DNA of 35,065 nt from Candidatus Bathyarchaeota archaeon (lineage in GTDB: Archaea > Thermoproteota > Bathyarchaeia > Bathyarchaeales > Bathyarchaeaceae), in assembly GCA_014859755.1 (NCBI GenBank), contig JACUTO010000001.1:1-35065 (forward strand), written 5' to 3'. Under the pieces are notes generated by a model. That model searched no databases, was not told the DNA's origin, and saw only the letters and a list, made by a program, of their open reading frames with translations. Below, in pieces: positions 23,992 to 31,566 of the stretch. The stretch's first letter is position 1, and each line of letters starts with the position of its first letter. The position numbers and the translations under genes are program-made.

Positions 23992-25101
23992 CTATCCTAA
24001 CTTTCCTATAGCTTCTCCTCTAACAGTTTTTCTGAAGGCGCTGCTTTCTTTTTTCAATCTCTCCCTGTTGGCAGCAGTTATGATTTCAACTTGGGGAAAA
24101 GCCTCAGGATACAATTTAAACATACGTTCTCGCAGCGTAGAAGTGGCACAATATTTTTTCAGTCCAGAAGGATTCCATTCTCCAACCAGTCTGATTACAT
24201 GGTCCTTGCTCAACCTGCTGAAGGCTTCTGCGAGAACCGAAGTTACGATGGTGTTGCCTGAAAGAACAGCGATTTCTGCTTCTCTGATGGCGTATTCGTT
24301 TCCATTAAAAGAAACGGTTAGGCCTCCATTTTTTCTCACCAACTGAAACGGTGGAACGTCCGTGATGCTGTCGCCTACGTACATCACGTTGTCAAGGCGG
24401 CTATCCAGTTTCTCAACAATATTCTGCACCGCCTTCGCCTTCTCATATCCGCCGACCGGATTAACCTCTTCCAGCATTTTACCTGATTCCATTTTGGGGA
24501 TTTCTTCCCAGAACATCTCGTCTAACTTCTGTATGGTTTCTTGGTCTCTCTGGGAGAAATCTTGGACAGCCTTCGCTTTTTCGGGGATTTCAATCATAGA
24601 CATCGTCGATATTTCCTTTCTAATTTCTTTCAGTCTCTTTGCCTCTTCTTCGCTCATCTCATACTTGTCGATGTTTAGTTTGGTACAGTAAGCGTTGTCG
24701 TAGGGAAAACCGGTTATGTGGCACAAAGAAGAGATATACTGCTCGTAACTGGTGCTGACGATGAAGGAGCGCATGAGGTCCCTGACAAACCGTAGCGTGT
24801 CTCGTGCACCGGGAACCAATAAGACGTTTTTGGAGGAGTATTCTCTTATCTTCTCGTTGGTTGCTCCGTAAGCCTTCAAGAAAGGAAGAATCAGCCTCAG
24901 CGTGTCTCCAGCCTTGTATCCGGGTTTCTTAACAACATCCGCGAGAACATCGTCATACTTGCTTATCAAGGCAAAAAACTGGTCTCCGTTAGGAACGAAA
25001 TAGGTTGTCAGCTCAAAGGCGTTGTCGTTCTTTGAAATGGGGCCTTCACAGTCAGTAACGAATATTCTCTGGTTTTTCGTTTGCGACGCCTCTGTGGCCA
25101 T
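23992..25101 (-). CDS. HAD-superfamily hydrolase-like protein with a large cap (resembles proteins annotated EhaR)
   Basis: 369 aa. It has a motif I-like FVTDCEGPIS (D-x-E instead of D-x-D) and a motif IV-like YVGDSITD. Its ATG overlaps the purD stop (TAATG). The resemblance to EhaR is from memory only. Confidence 0.5.
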   Translation of the reverse strand: MATEASQTKNQRIFVTDCEGPISKNDNAFELTTYFVPNGDQFFALISKYDDVLADVVKKPGYKAGDTLRLILPFLKAYGATNEKIREYSSKNVLLVPGARDTLRFVRDLMRSFIVSTSYEQYISSLCHITGFPYDNAYCTKLNIDKYEMSEEEAKRLKEIRKEISTMSMIEIPEKAKAVQDFSQRDQETIQKLDEMFWEEIPKMESGKMLEEVNPVGGYEKAKAVQNIVEKLDSRLDNVMYVGDSITDVPPFQLVRKNGGLTVSFNGNEYAIREAEIAVLSGNTIVTSVLAEAFSRLSKDHVIRLVGEWNPSGLKKYCATSTLRERMFKLYPEAFPQVEIITAANRERLKKESSAFRKTVRGEAIGKLG

Positions 25102-26510
25102 TACAGCGTCCTCAGCTTTTTCATGTGCCTTACGCTTTTTTCTATATGCTCCCTTGATGCAATGTCGTTTCTGTGCCAGAGCGCTCCGCCTCTAATCGCC
25201 TTTATGCCCTCTAAGGAGAGGTCTCTGGCACTCTGGATATCGTCTCCTATGCCGACAACGCACACGGTCCTCGACTTAAGCGCATAAGTTTTTCCTTCCC
25301 TCAACTCCATGGAAGCAGGATAAATCCTAATCTTGTTCCCATATTTTTCGGCCAATTCATGTGCTCCATTTAAATCCACGGGTTTATCCACCTCGTTTCT
25401 GTTCACTCGCTCAGGAAACACTGTTGCGTAGCCGCCGTAGTTTGGTGGAACTTTGTAGGTCACAACGGTCGCCTTTTCCTCAAATTCAACCCTCGTCAAT
25501 TTTCCGTCCAATATTTTGAAGCACACGTCAACGAAATCATCTTTCAGTATAGGCAACAGATTCTGTATCTCCGGATCGCCTGGTCGACTGTTATTTTCTA
25601 AAATTTTTGGTCCTCTGCTCGTATGAATGAAGGCGCCGTAGAAGGGGATGCCCCGCAACCCAGGATTGCTTCCTTTCCCCTTCAACTCTTTGAAGATTTT
25701 GTTCATGATTTCGATTTCTTTCTCCCGGTCCGCTGAAGTCATAAACGGTAATATGGCGCCCACGTCTTTGTAGGAGCCCATCCCACCAGTGTTTGGACCC
25801 TCATCATCATCGAACGCCCTCTTGTAGTCCCGTGTCTCTGGCAAAGGAACCAAATGCTTCCCATCGCAGAAGGCTTGGAAGCTGGATTCTTCGCCCTCGA
25901 TTTTTTCCTCTATTATCACCGGGCCATATTCATAATTGGCTAGGAAATGTTCGAAGATTTGTTCGCGGGTGTTGAAATGGTCTCCCCAGACGCCGACTCC
26001 CTTTCCTGCGGCTGGGTTATCAGGCTTCACGGCAACTTTGTTGTCAAGTTCGTCTAGCCAAGCGTAGAGGTTTTTTCTCACTTGCCCTGGGCTGATGTAA
26101 TCTTTTGGGTCGAATACCTTGAATTTTGGGTTGACTTCTGGAGCAACTTTTTGGAATAAATATCGTTGCGCAACCTTGCTTCCTTCAATGGCGTATCTTT
26201 TCGTTGGGCAGATCATAGGTATGCGAGTTTCTTTCTCGACAACATCTCTTAAGCCGTCAATTATCGGCTTTTCAGGGCCAACCATCCCGAAGTCTATGTG
26301 ATCTTCATATTTTTTGGCAAACTCACAGATTTCTTCGACGTTGAGGTCGGGAATAACAACGTGTCTTTTTGCTTTTTCCACGTTGAAGGGATTCTTTTGC
26401 TTGTCGGCAACGTAGATTTCTGCTGCGTAATTTTCGCTGCGACTGAAGGCGTCTACCATCGCAGCCGCCCTTGAACCATAAGAAACAACTAGGATGCCGA
26501 CTTTTTCCAT
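25101..26510 (-). CDS. purD: GAR synthetase (phosphoribosylamine-glycine ligase)
   Basis: The ORF is open from the TTG at 26525. I prefer the ATG at 26510, which lies 8 nt after GAGGG. Motifs are KVGILVVSYGSRAAAM, GPNTGGMGSY and ATP-grasp features. Confidence 0.9.
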   Translation of the reverse strand: MEKVGILVVSYGSRAAAMVDAFSRSENYAAEIYVADKQKNPFNVEKAKRHVVIPDLNVEEICEFAKKYEDHIDFGMVGPEKPIIDGLRDVVEKETRIPMICPTKRYAIEGSKVAQRYLFQKVAPEVNPKFKVFDPKDYISPGQVRKNLYAWLDELDNKVAVKPDNPAAGKGVGVWGDHFNTREQIFEHFLANYEYGPVIIEEKIEGEESSFQAFCDGKHLVPLPETRDYKRAFDDDEGPNTGGMGSYKDVGAILPFMTSADREKEIEIMNKIFKELKGKGSNPGLRGIPFYGAFIHTSRGPKILENNSRPGDPEIQNLLPILKDDFVDVCFKILDGKLTRVEFEEKATVVTYKVPPNYGGYATVFPERVNRNEVDKPVDLNGAHELAEKYGNKIRIYPASMELREGKTYALKSRTVCVVGIGDDIQSARDLSLEGIKAIRGGALWHRNDIASREHIEKSVRHMKKLRTL

Positions 26511-26549
26511 TAAATCATCCCTCAAAAGATAGAAGTTTCAGCCATATCG

Positions 26550-28064
26550 TTAATGGGTGGCAACCTCGTATATTCTTCCAGTTTCTTTATATCCCTTCTC
26601 AAATCTTTCCTTCATTTCATCTGCCAGTTTCTGAGCCATCGGAGTAGGATATTTCTCGGTAATGCATCCTAGACACAATTCGTTTCTGCTTAAACCAGTG
26701 GCTTTGACAAGCCCGTCCACTGATTGATATTTCACTGCGTCGGCGCCTACTATTTTAGCTATTTCTTCAGCTTCATATCGGGATCCTATCAACTCACCAT
26801 AGGTTGCCATGTCAACTCCATAGAAGCAAGGACCTATTATTCTGGGGAAAGTGATAAACAAATAGACTTTCTTTGCTCCCATTTTGCGTAGTTTCTTCAC
26901 CACAACCTTGGTCGTGTCGCCTCTAACGATGCTGTCGTCGACTACTGCAACGTTCTTCCCAACCATTTTGTGGTCGATGATGTTGATTTTTCTGTCTATT
27001 GTCGTGTATCGTTCCTCCGGCAGCAGAATAAAAGCCCGCTCTGTCACATACCTGTGTCTTCTTGACGCCCTTTCCCATCTTTTGCCTGTTAGTTCGTGAA
27101 GACCGAAGGCAGCGTCGTTACCTGTCTCCGGCATTGATATGATTATGTCCACATCTTCTGTGGTTTCAGGATATTCCCTTCCAAGGTTCCTTCCAAATTC
27201 TTCTCTCACTTCATATACAAACTTGTCTCCTAACATCGAGTCTGGTCTGGCGAAATAGGCAAACTCGAAGGCACATAGTGCCCTTTTTTCGCATCTTACT
27301 AGTTGCTCTCGAACAAAACCATCCTCTGAGGCAGTCACAAGTTCTCCCGGATTTATCTCAAAATCAAACTCAAGACCGTTGATATCTAAACCAACGGTTT
27401 CTGAAGATACTGCGCAGGTCTTGCGGTCTTCGCTGTAGCCGCAACACAGCGGTCTTATTCCGTAGGGGTCTTTGAAGGCAAACAATTCTCCTTTTTGGGT
27501 TATTCCAGCTACGGAAAAAGCGCCTTCAATTTCTTTCATGCAACTCCTAACAGACGAAGCTAGATCGCCCTCTTTCCTGAGTTTCAGGAGAAGCTTTCTG
27601 GAAATTAGTTGCGCATCGAAATTGTATTGGAAGCTTGGGAATTTTCCTTTTATTTCCCTTGTTATTTTGGGACCGTTAACAATGTTCCCGTTGAACGATA
27701 TCGCAATTTTCGTCTTCCCTGCTCTCTCCAGTATTGGTGCGGCGCTCTTCACCAACGATTGTTCATCTGTTCCGCCAGAGGTTGTGTATCTCACGTGTCC
27801 TAGGCCCACATGTCCAGGAAGCTTTCTGACCCATTTCTGAATGGCCTCTCTTTTTATCTTAGGAACCAGATCCAGACCTCTATGGGCATGGAATCTCCCA
27901 TCAAAAGTAAGAAATCCGTGGGACTGATGGCCGCGATGATTCTGGCCTCTTAGTCCCCAGTAAACGTAAGGAAACACTGGTCTGTGCTCGAAATCCAGGG
28001 CTCCGAAAACTCCACAAGCTTCTTTTAAATGTTCTAGCATATTTTTAACTATGAAATTAGCCAT
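26550..28064 (-). CDS. purF: Amidophosphoribosyltransferase
   Basis: 504 aa. The Ntn catalytic Cys lies in CGVFGA after a 16-residue leader. It has the PRTase motif VAVVDDSIVRGDT and Cys residues (CFYGVDM, CLGCI) placed like the 4Fe-4S ligands of cluster-containing PurF enzymes. Confidence 0.9.
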   Translation of the reverse strand: MANFIVKNMLEHLKEACGVFGALDFEHRPVFPYVYWGLRGQNHRGHQSHGFLTFDGRFHAHRGLDLVPKIKREAIQKWVRKLPGHVGLGHVRYTTSGGTDEQSLVKSAAPILERAGKTKIAISFNGNIVNGPKITREIKGKFPSFQYNFDAQLISRKLLLKLRKEGDLASSVRSCMKEIEGAFSVAGITQKGELFAFKDPYGIRPLCCGYSEDRKTCAVSSETVGLDINGLEFDFEINPGELVTASEDGFVREQLVRCEKRALCAFEFAYFARPDSMLGDKFVYEVREEFGRNLGREYPETTEDVDIIISMPETGNDAAFGLHELTGKRWERASRRHRYVTERAFILLPEERYTTIDRKINIIDHKMVGKNVAVVDDSIVRGDTTKVVVKKLRKMGAKKVYLFITFPRIIGPCFYGVDMATYGELIGSRYEAEEIAKIVGADAVKYQSVDGLVKATGLSRNELCLGCITEKYPTPMAQKLADEMKERFEKGYKETGRIYEVATH

Positions 28065-28121: not shown

Positions 28122-29297
28122 CTAAGCTGTTAGGATCTCTTCAGCGTTCCTAATGAGGTTTTCTTTTCTATCGACGGGAACGACAACGTTGGCTGCGTAT
28201 TCGTGACCGTCGGCTATACCGAAACCCTTAGACGCTTGTATCAGGAGGTTAACGGCGCCAAGGGTTTTTCCTTGACTAATCAGAGTCTGCACGTTCCTTG
28301 GGACTCTAACAGAAATCTTCGCAAAGGCTTTCTTCAACTTCCCCCATTCAGGTATGTCAGATGGCACGTTTACGATGCCGAAAATATACTTGCTAGGTTT
28401 TATTAATCGTCCTTGATAAGACAGGAACGAACAAAATTGGCCTATGACCTTTGTACCCATGCCCTTGTACATGTCGCCAGCGTCGAACCATTGAATATGG
28501 TCTGTTTCTTTTAGTCTCTCACGGTAAAGCCTTGCTATAAGACGTTTGTTCACCTTTTTCCTCCGCTCTTCCAATTCATTGATTTTCTTTTTTGTTTGGT
28601 CTGTTATCCCTTCTAGGCAGACTTTGATTCCAAGTTCGGGTCCTCCCTCATAGTAGCCCACCGCCCCCAAAATTTGAAGCTTCGAGAAAAGGCTGTGGAT
28701 GCGGGTTCCAAATCTTACGATCTTGATTTTCTTCCCCTCGCCCTGAACAACACCGTTCTTGATGGCTTCATCTAAAACAACTTTATTCAAGCCTGTCCAG
28801 CCGGTTGGAATCTCGCAACTTCCTACCAAGGCTAGGTAGGAGAGGTCTGTGTTGCTTTCGTTGAGGGCTTTTGCGAATAAGTAGCAGCAAGTGGCTCCTG
28901 AGAAATCGCTTTCTCCGCGGAAGCCGTAGTTCTCGAGGTTGAGGTCGTAAACTCTGGGGTCAGTTGCTGGTGTGGGATCGTGGTGATCCAAGATTATGGT
29001 TAGGTTTCGACCAGCATTGCATTCTGAGATGAAGTCGGCGTGGGAGGAGCCAATATCAGCGTAGAAGATTGTTCTGCCCACGCTTTCATGAAGACTCTCG
29101 ATGACCTCCGGATAGATCTTTTCCAAACAAAATGTTCTGACCCCATAATCCTCTCGCTCCAACGCTGCCTTTACAACTGCAGCGGAGCAGAGACCGTCTG
29201 CGTCATCGTGATGAACCAAAATCACTTCTTTAGGTTTTTCTTGCTTCAACTCAGAAATTGCTGTTGCAACTTTTTTCCCAAACTCTTCGTGATTCAT
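28122..29297 (-). CDS. DHH/DHHA1-family phosphoesterase (RecJ/NrnA-like)
   Basis: 391 aa. Motifs are VHHDDADGLCSAA, ILDHHDP and the DHHA1-like ADGHEYAAN. Confidence 0.75.
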   Translation of the reverse strand: MNHEEFGKKVATAISELKQEKPKEVILVHHDDADGLCSAAVVKAALEREDYGVRTFCLEKIYPEVIESLHESVGRTIFYADIGSSHADFISECNAGRNLTIILDHHDPTPATDPRVYDLNLENYGFRGESDFSGATCCYLFAKALNESNTDLSYLALVGSCEIPTGWTGLNKVVLDEAIKNGVVQGEGKKIKIVRFGTRIHSLFSKLQILGAVGYYEGGPELGIKVCLEGITDQTKKKINELEERRKKVNKRLIARLYRERLKETDHIQWFDAGDMYKGMGTKVIGQFCSFLSYQGRLIKPSKYIFGIVNVPSDIPEWGKLKKAFAKISVRVPRNVQTLISQGKTLGAVNLLIQASKGFGIADGHEYAANVVVPVDRKENLIRNAEEILTA

Positions 29298-29334
29298 GAG
29301 GACCTCCCAACTGAGACAAATGTAAGGATGCTTA

Positions 29335-29877
29335 TTAGATGGTTTTGGAAACGATTTTTAGCAGGTCTGATCGGGTTATTATGCCTACGACATCACCCTT
29401 CTTCACGACCAGCACACCTGGATGATCTTCTAGGAGGGGTTTGATCATGCTGACACTCGTTTCTTCTGGAACACTTGGTAGGGGTGGCTGCATCACTCTC
29501 TCAACTTTCTCATCTGCAATGGTTGAACTCAGATTTCTGATGATGCTCTCCTCCGTAACCGTGCCTATCACTCTTTTATTTTCGATGACAGGCAACTGAG
29601 ATATGGCGTGTTTCATCATGAGTTCACTTACTCTCACAATTTTGTCGGTAGGCTTGACGGAAATGACTCGCTTTGTCATGACTTCCCCGCAGTTTTTTCC
29701 TTCTCCTTCGGTTAGAACTTGGAGAATTTTGTTCACTGTCGACAATCTGGGGTCCACTCTTCCGCCCTCGATTTTGGCGATGTGGGCTTGTGAAACTCCT
29801 ACCAGCTCTGCTAGTTTTCTTTGAGTCAGTTCTGCATCTAATCTTAACTTTTTCAGCGCAGGTCCCGTTATGATCAT
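29335..29877 (-). CDS. XRE-type HTH plus CBS-pair transcriptional regulator
   Basis: 180 aa. The N-terminal HTH is LTQRKLAELVGVSQAHIAKIEGG. It is followed by two CBS-like repeats (VMTKRVISVKPTDKI...QLPVIE; VMQPPLPSVPEE...VLVVKKGDVVGIITRSDLL). Confidence 0.8.
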   Translation of the reverse strand: MIITGPALKKLRLDAELTQRKLAELVGVSQAHIAKIEGGRVDPRLSTVNKILQVLTEGEGKNCGEVMTKRVISVKPTDKIVRVSELMMKHAISQLPVIENKRVIGTVTEESIIRNLSSTIADEKVERVMQPPLPSVPEETSVSMIKPLLEDHPGVLVVKKGDVVGIITRSDLLKIVSKTI

Positions 29878-29879
29878 TG

Positions 29880-29894
29880 ATAACCCAAGGTTAT
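29880..29894. promoter_or_regulatory. Candidate operator: perfect inverted repeat ATAACC-CAA-GGTTAT between the TATA box and the ATG of the HTH-CBS gene
   Basis: ATAACC (29880-29885) and GGTTAT (29889-29894) are reverse complements. On the minus strand the order is TATATAAAAAA, then the palindrome, then the ATG at 29877. It sits in the shared divergent spacer with the SAM synthetase gene. Confidence 0.5.
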
Positions 29895-29965
29895 TTTTTA
29901 TATACTTTTAATATCACAAGATATATATTTAGTTGCTGTTTATAAGCCTTCGTCAAGGTGTTTAC

Positions 29966-31174
29966 ATGCGAAACATGCTGATCAACGGTTTAAACCAAAC
30001 ACCAATTGAGAAACAAAAACTTGAAATCGTGGAAAGGAAAGGTCTCGGCCATCCTGACTCCATTTGCGACGCCATCATGGATCAGGTATCAGTAAGGCTG
30101 AGCAGAGCCTATTTGGAGAAGTTTGGGGCGATCATGCACCACAATGCTGACAAGTCTCTGCTGGTTGCGGGTGAAATTGAAACCATATTCGGCGGAGGTT
30201 CAGTGAAGAAGCCCATGCTTCTCATATTTGGCGACAGAGCAACCTTCGAAGTTGACGGGATTAGCCTACCCATCAAGGAAATGACCATTCAAACGGCGAA
30301 GGGATGGTTCAAGAAAAACCTTAGATTTGTGGATCCAGAAAAACACGTAAAGTATCAAGTGGAGTTACAACCGGGATCTTCGGAGCTCACGGACATCTTC
30401 AAGAGGAAGGGAATGATCCTTGGCGCCAACGATACCTCTGCGGCTGTGGGCTATGCGCCCATGACAAGAACAGAGAATATTGTTCTGGAAACCGAAAGGT
30501 ACGTGAATTCTAATGATTTCAAGAAGAGGTTTCCTGAGTCAGGGGAAGATGTAAAGGTGATGGGGTTTAGAAGAGGAGCGAATCTGAATATAACCATCGC
30601 CATGGCTTTCGTTGACCGCTTCGTCGAAAGTGAGAGGGATTACTTCAGAAAAAAGGCTGAGCTTCTAGAGGAGATAAAAAGGTTCGTGAAGGAAAAGGTG
30701 GATTTTGAAAACGTCACGGTGGATTTGAACACTCTGGACGCGAAGGGGAGGGGAATAGGCGGAGTCTATTTAACCGTGCTGGGCACCAGCGCAGACGGTG
30801 CGGATTCGGGTCAGGTTGGTAGGGGGAATAGAGTGAACGGTGTCATACCTTTGAACAGACCTGTATGTTCCGAGGCAGCAGCAGGAAAGAATCCGGTTAG
30901 TCACGTTGGGAAAATCTACAATCTTTTGACCCATAAGATTGCCAACAGCATCTATGAGCAGGTGCCTGGAATAGAGGAGGTTTACATATGGCTTTTGAGT
31001 CAGATAGGTAAGCCGATTGATCAGCCCGCCATAGCCGCTGCTCAGGTCGTAATGAAATCTGGAAACTCCTTCGAGCATGTTCAGAAAGAAATAGAAGAAG
31101 TTGTGGACTCTGAACTTGAAAACATAGAAAAATTCTGCATGGATCTGGCTTACGGAAAAATTCCAATCTGCTAA
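29966..31174 (+). CDS. mat: Archaeal-type S-adenosylmethionine synthetase
   Basis: The ORF is open from the TTG at 29933. The ATG at 29966 lies 5 nt after AAGGTG and gives MRNMLINGL...EIVERKGLGHPDSICD. Other motifs are GDDVKVMG-like EDVKVMGFRRG, GRGNRVNG and GKNPVSHVGKIYN, all characteristic of the archaeal MAT family. Confidence 0.92.
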   Translation: MRNMLINGLNQTPIEKQKLEIVERKGLGHPDSICDAIMDQVSVRLSRAYLEKFGAIMHHNADKSLLVAGEIETIFGGGSVKKPMLLIFGDRATFEVDGISLPIKEMTIQTAKGWFKKNLRFVDPEKHVKYQVELQPGSSELTDIFKRKGMILGANDTSAAVGYAPMTRTENIVLETERYVNSNDFKKRFPESGEDVKVMGFRRGANLNITIAMAFVDRFVESERDYFRKKAELLEEIKRFVKEKVDFENVTVDLNTLDAKGRGIGGVYLTVLGTSADGADSGQVGRGNRVNGVIPLNRPVCSEAAAGKNPVSHVGKIYNLLTHKIANSIYEQVPGIEEVYIWLLSQIGKPIDQPAIAAAQVVMKSGNSFEHVQKEIEEVVDSELENIEKFCMDLAYGKIPIC

Positions 31175-31260: not shown

Positions 31261-31566
31261 CTATGAGAGCTCTTCTGTCACCCTTCTATATAGTTCAGCC
31301 CCTGTTTCTATTCCAACAAAAGCCACTACGTTAAATCCAACTTTTTTGCTGTCTAGAACCACTGTAAAAGCCTTGATTATGCCTTTCTCTTTCAACCTTG
31401 TGATTTTATCGTAGACGGTTGAGCTGGCAACTCCCGTTCTTCCAGAGATCTCTGCATAGCTCATTCTACCATCCTTCTGCAACTCCATTAAGATTTTTAA
31501 ATCAGACTCGTCCAAGCTAGCTAGTGGAACATCACCGAATACAAGTGACCAATTCCGACGATTCAC
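31261..31566 (-). CDS. Lrp/AsnC-family regulator, short (HTH plus incomplete effector domain)
   Basis: The ORF has 101 aa from a GTG start. A TTG at 31515 would give the canonical LDESDLKILMEL N-terminus. The HTH is MSYAEISGRTGVASSTVYDKITRLKEKGII. The ORF stops early in the RAM domain. Confidence 0.7.
   Translation of the reverse strand: MNRRNWSLVFGDVPLASLDESDLKILMELQKDGRMSYAEISGRTGVASSTVYDKITRLKEKGIIKAFTVVLDSKKVGFNVVAFVGIETGAELYRRVTEELS

Follow-up and report, generated by a model that had tools for sequence, protein, structure and literature searches.

Divergent from the S-adenosylmethionine (SAM) synthetase gene of Candidatus Bathyarchaeota archaeon lies a gene for a protein, referred to here as the regulator, that joins an XRE-type helix-turn-helix (HTH) domain to a pair of CBS domains. 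The DNA analyzed was a stretch of 35,065 nt, called the window throughout (assembly GCA_014859755.1, contig JACUTO010000001.1, positions 1-35,065, forward strand). Our favored reading, which we rate as somewhat better than even, is that the regulator is an XRE-type autorepressor under ligand control, that it acts in addition on the gene for methionine adenosyltransferase (MAT, the SAM synthetase), and that it most likely senses SAM or a SAM-derived nucleoside. Operator binding, autorepression, action on MAT, and the choice of ligand are inferred, as follows. A dimer of the 180-aa protein would bind a 15-bp site, ATAACY-N3-RGTTAT, and occupancy of this operator between the regulator's own TATA box and a leaderless start would block recruitment of RNA polymerase. 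The unit repressed in this way would be the regulator plus, where present, a gene for a RecJ-like DHH phosphoesterase, with possible read-through into purF-purD. Within the 88-bp spacer this site is centered some 65 bp upstream of the transcription start site (TSS) predicted for MAT, from where it would modulate MAT, upward or downward. An adenosyl ligand in the CBS pair would switch DNA binding, and with SAM, methylthioadenosine (MTA), or S-adenosylhomocysteine (SAH) as the likeliest ligand a feedback loop on SAM synthesis would result.

A first-pass annotation of this sequence had named the genes and placed them, the 88-bp spacer, and the palindrome ATAACC-CAA-GGTTAT exactly where we find them (Table 1). 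The spacer (29878-29965) is 73% A+T. MAT matched PF01941 with an E value of 1.7e-168 and NF003363 with 662.5 bits against a cut-off of 557. On the minus strand, the regulator is followed by the DHH gene, purF, purD, and a haloacid dehalogenase (HAD)-like gene, in that order.

Table 1. Features of the regulator-MAT region, in window coordinates.
Feature	Position	Strand	Basis or remark
Regulator gene (XRE-type HTH_3 + 2 CBS domains), 180 aa	29335-29877	-	Pfam
Archaeal MAT (SAM synthetase), presumed regulated target	29966-31174	+	PF01941, NF003363
Candidate operator ATAACC-CAA-GGTTAT (family consensus ATAACY-N3-RGTTAT)	29880-29894	.	2 nt from regulator ATG; conservation
TATA-like box of regulator, TTTTTTATATA (+ strand) = TATATAAAAAA (- strand)	29895-29905	-	sequence
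MAT promoter box ATATCACAAGATATATATT: CACAAGA, resembling a transcription factor B recognition element (BRE), + TATA TATATATT	29911-29929	+	conservation, consensus
Shine-Dalgarno-like AAGGTG of MAT	29955-29960	+	AAGGTG/AAGGCG in most short-spacer loci
RecJ-family DHH phosphoesterase, 391 aa	28122-29297	-	Pfam DHH, structure relatives
purF	26550-28064	-	TIGR01134 match
purD	25101-26525	-	TIGR00877 match
HAD-like gene	23992-25101	-	co-directional with regulator, DHH, purF, and purD

The divergent arrangement of regulator and MAT, which the first-pass annotation had reported from this one genome, proved to be a conserved unit when gene neighborhoods were surveyed. Orthologues of the regulator (clade 1 of the family described below) were divergent from MAT at all 24 loci found among 41 relatives, and these loci came from 12 families. 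From 298 further hits in species-representative genomes, the 80 best were taken as a wider locus set, and 77 of these had enough upstream DNA; all were labeled Bathyarchaeia/Bathyarchaeota, Thermoproteota, or uncultured archaeon. The two genes were divergent in 74 of the 77 loci by automatic count and in 75 when L070, where they are also adjacent, was included. Genes on the other side of the regulator were variable among loci. At two loci (L082, 472-2949 on the minus strand, and L020) the MAT gene next to the regulator forms an open reading frame of 825 aa, split after GHPDYIC by an insert of about 420 aa; the insert includes LIGYYMAEGS, has HN as its last residues ahead of a Cys, and looks like an intein with a homing endonuclease.

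Both parts of the regulator were recognized by Pfam. The N-terminal HTH_3 domain (PF01381, residues 8-55) scored 41.8 bits against a cut-off of 23, and the C-terminal CBS pair (two copies of PF00571, residues ~64-176) scored 87.5 bits in 2 stretches. None of the NCBIfam models reached its cut-off for the regulator. Mean column identity over 21 orthologues was 76%, with SQAHIAKIE and GIITRSD invariant or nearly so. An AlphaFold2 model had a mean pLDDT of 85, and Foldseek matched it to CBS-pair structures with TM-scores of approximately 0.55-0.62 normalized to the query; no structure of an HTH and CBS fusion was found in the PDB, either by sequence or by fold.

The palindrome is statistically unremarkable when taken alone in one spacer, as a perfect 6+6 repeat with a 3-nt loop arose in 4.4% of spacer shuffles and one with a loop of 2-6 nt in 17%. 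Across the family, 80 of the 81 distinct orthologous spacers carried ATAACC-N3-RGTTAT with no more than 2 mismatches; the site starts -1 to 8 nt from the regulator start codon, overlapping the regulator's own predicted core promoter and abutting a T/A-rich box. The best matches in the 81 spacers were perfect in 19, had one mismatch in 56, and had two in 6; the single exception, L105, has a two-mismatch match that is misplaced. We regard the palindrome as a functional element since it is conserved in nearly all of these spacers, and its invariant arms with 3 freely varying central bases fit base-specific recognition by a protein dimer. It is present as a single copy in the 1.67-Mb assembly (81% complete), and a scan of the window allowing one mismatch returned 2 hits compared to 0.05 expected. 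Each locus carries one operator, with no second copy recurring in 104 related loci. One-mismatch hits in the genome and extra hits in the same 104 loci were scattered, so that no regulon beyond the local site was found.

Promoter, BRE/TATA, and TSS assignments were read from consensus sequence. The regulator-strand upstream sequence is AAAAGTATATAAAAAATAACCTTGGGTTATCA-ATG, with a TATA-like octamer, TATATAAA, at -27 to -20 relative to the ATG, and the palindrome spans approximately -3 to -17. Most orthologous spacers have a T-run after the palindrome. No Shine-Dalgarno sequence was seen between the palindrome and the regulator ATG and the TATA-like box is close to that ATG; the regulator mRNA is therefore probably leaderless or nearly so. 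Archaeal repressors bound in the zone between TATA and start block recruitment of the polymerase, and the first-pass annotation had assigned the palindrome to this zone. Its placement between a TATA-like box and a start codon lacking a Shine-Dalgarno sequence is indeed the classic position of an archaeal repressor site. Taken together, these data make it very probable that the protein is an autoregulating transcription factor that uses the palindrome.

The inverted repeat could instead act as RNA, forming a stem-loop in the 5' leader that affects translation or stability, and the commonest variant, ATAACC...AGTTAT, would still pair by G-U wobble on the regulator mRNA strand. However, the predicted hairpin (-3.6 and -4.7 kcal/mol) was not more stable than those of shuffled sequences (z of -0.35 and -0.96), its stem is invariant over 80 loci rather than covarying, and with a TATA-like box only 18-28 nt from the ATG the repeat should lie outside the regulator mRNA. 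We consider a role as RNA highly improbable. Identity with a known riboswitch or other structured RNA was also rejected, as the region had no match to any Rfam family, riboswitches included.

On the MAT side, the best-conserved element after the palindrome is the promoter box, ATAYCGYAAAWTATATATT, found in 73 of 81 spacers at 35-59 nt upstream of the MAT start. The palindrome lies 16 bp upstream of this box in the 88-bp spacer, and the distance from palindrome start to box start is held at 30-32 bp in 54 short-spacer loci. The MAT TSS is predicted near 29952, which would put the palindrome center near -65. We think it likely, with less assurance than for autoregulation, that MAT, too, is under the regulator's control in genomes with a short spacer, this one included.

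Members of the same family elsewhere in the genome and class bear on what the regulator may sense. One full-length paralogue, 38-40% identical, is encoded in this genome (contig C66:6067-6591; locus L111, 3562-4119, minus strand). It is divergent from genes for an MJ0100-type homocysteine-biosynthesis enzyme (PF01837 plus its own CBS pair) and a NIL-ferredoxin, and this pairing recurred in 8 of 11 loci carrying the clade-2 paralogue in relatives. In one of the 11 loci, the partner is a MetY-like pyridoxal phosphate (PLP) enzyme followed by a MetX-like hydrolase, and in another a ThrC-like enzyme. The clade-2 gene has a conserved palindrome of its own, TATTCC-TTTT-GGAATA, approximately 25 nt upstream of the paralogue ATG. 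Three clades were distinguished by recognition helix and site: SQAHIAK with ATAACC-N3-GGTTAT in clade 1, SQSLIAK with TATTCC-N4-GGAATA in clade 2, and SQSLIAR with ATTACT-N3-AGTAAT in clade 3, each palindrome lying at that clade's own promoter. Helix and operator covary among the three clades. A clade-2-like protein of another order in the class has a TATTC-N6-GAATA site, and its gene is divergent from MAT. Independent pairing with MAT and with three homocysteine routes that are not homologous to one another points to a role of the HTH-CBS family in the methionine/SAM branch in Bathyarchaeia. A perfect paralogue-type palindrome (TATTCCAATCGGAATA) is also present on contig C232 (8080-8095). A ThiF/MoeB-like E1 gene ends on one side of it, and a small Cys-rich HTH gene lies approximately 90 nt downstream; this intergenic site could be a second site of the paralogue's regulon.

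Several observations weigh against the favored reading. The operator sits in the regulator promoter and not in the MAT core promoter. The regulator is dispensable, clade-1 orthologues having been found in only 24 of 41 relatives and the gene being missing from a closed genome. One clade has spacers of 183-268 bp, 21 of them distinct (loci L022, L059-L069, L072, L076-L080, L087, L089, L092, L104, and L106), in which the ATAACC palindrome keeps with the regulator and the promoter box keeps with MAT. The operator is then 116-185 bp away from the MAT TATA, and 14 of the 21 long spacers have a different palindrome, TATGCA-N6-TGCATA, placed 22-23 nt ahead of the MAT TATA, at about the same position relative to the MAT BRE as the ATAACC site in short spacers. 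Because of this distance and the other palindrome, direct control of MAT by the regulator may not be universal. Outside Bathyarchaeia, homologues have mixed neighbors, which include HypF, PPDK, a Cys/Met PLP enzyme, a class-V aminotransferase with a SepSecS-like gene, and a ThrC-like enzyme. Lastly, the structural neighbors of the CBS pair mostly hold AMP, ADP, or ATP.

MAT was still present in relatives without the regulator, and in two of these (G019 and G007) no clade-2 operator was found near MAT. Autoregulation seems to be the constant role of the ATAACC site, and a palindrome just upstream of the MAT BRE seems important for MAT; the protein that occupies the latter may differ among clades. 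Of the 35 loci with a gene other than DHH or purF downstream of the regulator, 12, mostly in the long-spacer clade, carry a full-length Lrp/AsnC gene convergent with the regulator. The Lrp/AsnC protein may be a candidate to bind TATGCA-N6-TGCATA, a box that resembles Lrp-type sites.

These results allow a narrower scenario, in which the palindrome controls the regulator or regulator-DHH unit alone, other factors control MAT, and the two genes stay together because back-to-back promoters are hard to split. The operator's constant movement with the regulator as the spacer lengthens, the second palindrome at the long-spacer MAT promoter with an Lrp/AsnC gene nearby in 12 of 35 loci, and the retention of MAT in relatives without the regulator are all in line with it. 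It does not explain, however, why adjacency to MAT outlasts divergence at the level of the class while the other neighbors all change, why the palindrome and the MAT box are held 30-32 bp apart in 54 loci, or why the paralogues repeat the layout of regulator and target with homocysteine genes. A sensor-bearing regulator with a single site also normally controls the gene that it faces. We judge this scenario quite improbable and retain the reading in which MAT is a target as well. HTH-CBS proteins were found in 164 of 301 sampled genomes of the phylum at E ≤ 1e-25; since homologues elsewhere in the phylum have mixed neighbors, the link to MAT is best regarded as a feature of the class Bathyarchaeia that does not generalize to the whole phylum. 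In another family of the phylum, an HTH-CBS gene is divergent from a HypF-type carbamoyltransferase gene (~770 aa), an arrangement that is locally conserved (L132-L136 and L157).

The nature of the ligand was approached through the CBS pair. By sequence, it matched the CBS pair of MJ0100 (7e-18), PH1780 (4.6e-17), and also MJ1225. MJ0100 and PH1780 are reported to be SAM/MTA-responsive in PMC13381585, a 2026 paper that cites Lucas 2010. In the regulator, GIITRSD (G-h-h-T-x-x-D) is invariant in the second CBS domain, and the first reads GTVTEES. The G-h-h-T-x-x-D motif is one that we take to be the ribose-binding signature of CBS domains, so the two sequences suggest one canonical adenosyl site per protomer. 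SAM is favored as the ligand by context and not by structure, since the CBS structural neighbors mostly hold adenine nucleotides, and we see the case for SAM, MTA, or SAH as evenly balanced.

If the CBS pair bound ATP, ADP, or AMP instead, as in CcpN, AcuB, and AMPK-gamma, the regulator would be a sensor of energy charge that tunes ATP-consuming MAT, DHH, and the de novo purine genes to the pool of adenylates instead of to SAM. In its favor, the top structural hits were CBS pairs bound to AMP, ADP, ATP, or Ap4A (AcuB, CBSX2, and the CBS tandem of an archaeal site-2 protease). About half of the loci have purF-purD or DHH downstream of the regulator and one has purB there, and the DHH-purF-purD-HAD block also recurs at loci that lack the regulator. 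The invariant partner is nevertheless MAT and not a purine gene, with purF linked in one clade and carrying no operator in front. In addition, the paralogues adjoin three non-homologous kinds of homocysteine/methionine enzymes, which indicates the sulfur amino-acid/SAM branch. We regard an energy-charge sensor as unlikely, if still worth weighing, and continue with SAM or a SAM-derived nucleoside as the signal.

The DHH gene starts 37 nt past the regulator stop, and the gap contains a GGGAGG ribosome-binding site and no T-run terminator; DHH is probably co-transcribed with the regulator. The DHH domain (PF01368) scored 38.7 bits compared to a threshold of 28.1, and the motifs HHDDADG, ILDHHDP, and ADGHEYAA (DxD, DHH, and GH) align with a RecJ-like structure. 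Scores against the NCBIfam archaeal RecJ/GAN models were all below cut-off (170.9 vs 360 for NF053576, RecJ_archaeal; 85.3 vs 850 and 107.7 vs 550 for the others). Relatives in the PDB were 7bhi (6.9e-23), 5x4h, the single-stranded DNA-specific exonuclease GAN of Thermococcus (5ghr), and MjaRecJ2. On this basis, we place the protein in the archaeal RecJ group, as a short and divergent member that retains the catalytic motifs. Another contig of the genome carries a second RecJ-like gene, which is longer.

DHH orthologues were found in 13 of the 41 relatives, and none was found in the other 28. The gene immediately follows the regulator in 9 of the 13 and lies 1.9 kb downstream of it in a tenth; of the other three copies, all located elsewhere, two directly precede purF-purD-HAD and one has a different context. 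In the wider set, DHH is directly downstream of the regulator in 29 of 77 loci. One large clade has a gap of a few nt between regulator and DHH and then a convergent gene, and for this reason we interpret the pair as a two-gene operon there. On a tree built from the regulator plus MAT, DHH linkage appeared in three clades, purF linkage in the window's clade only, and neither in the long-spacer clade. The sequence comparisons thus present DHH as a genuine but accessory partner: the proposal of the first-pass annotation that it belongs with the regulator is borne out as an operon in many lineages, but not as a general property of the system.

The inclusion of purF-purD in a regulatory circuit, also proposed there, fared less well, with linkage in a single clade and no operator before purF in either the genome search or the 104 related loci. 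A TATA-like TTTAACTTAAAG is located approximately 25-30 nt upstream of the purF ATG, and the 57-nt gap between DHH and purF may hold a separate promoter for purF. Part of the purine linkage may be an inherited neighborhood, or synteny, because a closed relative without the regulator has purF divergent from MAT. In that genome (L177; G019:C1:27500-30250), the two genes are separated by approximately 217 bp with no ATAACC palindrome. At two other loci, L167 and L168 (G025 and G015), a co-directional DHH-purF-purD-HAD block lies away from any HTH-CBS gene. The RecJ-like DHH and HAD-like genes may belong functionally to the purine operon.

Turnover of a nucleotide signal was a further element of the first-pass proposal. 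In such a circuit, the CBS pair would sense cyclic di-AMP (c-di-AMP), pApA, or 3'-phosphoadenosine 5'-phosphate (pAp), and the co-transcribed DHH enzyme would degrade the signal. CBS-pair receptors for c-di-AMP (CbpB) and DHH-type phosphodiesterases are known, and the tight regulator-DHH operon with few-nt gaps in one large clade would suit the idea. The regulator's match to the CbpB/DarB-type receptor model NF041630 was weak (32.5 bits vs a cut-off of 125), and membership in that group was rejected. The diadenylate cyclase domain DAC (PF02457) was detected in none of the 41 genomes but in 11 of 14 control genomes, including three archaea, and we rejected a role for c-di-AMP accordingly. Also against a second messenger, the DHH protein is RecJ-like and not GdpP/NrnA-like, and most of the 28 relatives without a DHH orthologue keep the regulator. 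An adenosine 5'-phosphosulfate (APS)-kinase-like gene, a source of 3'-phosphoadenosine 5'-phosphosulfate (PAPS) and hence of pAp, tracked DHH weakly (9 of 13 genomes with DHH vs 13 of 28 without). We think this scenario extremely unlikely. The broader proposal of a single ligand-responsive circuit for SAM, purines, and nucleotide signals was only partly supported: the regulator-MAT unit is conserved, but the purine link is limited to one clade, DHH is accessory, and c-di-AMP is disfavored.

Among characterized proteins, the closest architecture is that of CcpN of Bacillus subtilis, which likewise has an N-terminal HTH and two CBS domains and represses gapB, pckA, and sr1. Its activity as a repressor responds to adenine nucleotides. 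CcpN differs in being bacterial and in having gluconeogenic targets and other operators, compared to the XRE/HTH_3 domain, MAT partner, and archaeal host seen here; orthology was rejected, as the regulator scored 29.6 bits against a cut-off of 260 for NF053704, over the CBS part only. MetJ, SahR, and the SAM riboswitches follow the same proposed logic, with SAM or SAH feeding back on SAM synthetase and methionine genes, but as ribbon-helix-helix protein, ArsR-type protein, and RNA, respectively, they have no homology to the HTH-CBS regulator. Comparative work on bacterial SAM/SAH-responsive met regulons covers Proteobacteria (PMC4239095). The CBS pairs of MJ0100 (an aspartate-semialdehyde sulfurtransferase with a SAM/MTA-binding CBS pair) and PH1780 are related to that of the regulator by overall sequence match; there the pair regulates an enzyme or stands alone, whereas here it is fused to a DNA-binding domain, and an MJ0100-type enzyme is the neighbor of the paralogous regulator in this genome. 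XRE/Cro-C1-type autorepressors, HipB-like antitoxins included, share the HTH_3 fold, a dimer-type palindrome over their own promoter, and divergent gene pairs, but are without a CBS-type small-molecule sensor; the HipB/Y4mF models were below their cut-offs for the regulator. HhpR of Pyrococcus yayanosii is also an archaeal CBS-domain transcription regulator, described in PMC11705074 as an activator with four CBS domains that responds to hydrostatic pressure; the regulator scored 20.7 bits against a cut-off of 520 for its model, NF053603.

No description of an HTH-CBS/MAT regulator was found in a literature search, in agreement with the first-pass statement that no system of this kind had been described, and an HTH-CBS regulator of SAM synthetase is apparently unpublished. 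We know of no SAM riboswitch or MetJ-like factor that would control methionine and SAM synthesis in Archaea. The regulator is a strong candidate for the missing regulator of archaeal SAM metabolism. A fuller proposal, which we advance tentatively and with less than even confidence, is that it would be the first protein-based sensor of SAM or a SAM metabolite to control SAM synthetase transcription in Archaea, with a function matching that of MetJ and the SAM riboswitches in bacteria, that HTH-CBS paralogues with their own operators govern homocysteine, methionine, and SAM synthesis in Bathyarchaeia, and that the substrate of the co-expressed accessory RecJ-like phosphoesterase ties adenosyl and purine metabolism to the switch. 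A defined protein, a 15-bp site, and a target promoter are conserved in approximately 100 genomes of an uncultured, globally abundant class, and the hypothesis is testable with recombinant protein and 90 bp of DNA, without culture. The three paralogue-operator pairs form a natural set for specificity studies, and a SAM-responsive HTH-CBS switch could find use in biosensors.

A short Lrp/AsnC-type HTH gene (101 aa, 31261-31566, minus strand) is convergent with MAT in the window, with no RAM domain detected in its product. Genes of the Lrp/AsnC type turn up again in the MAT-regulator neighborhood of other clades.

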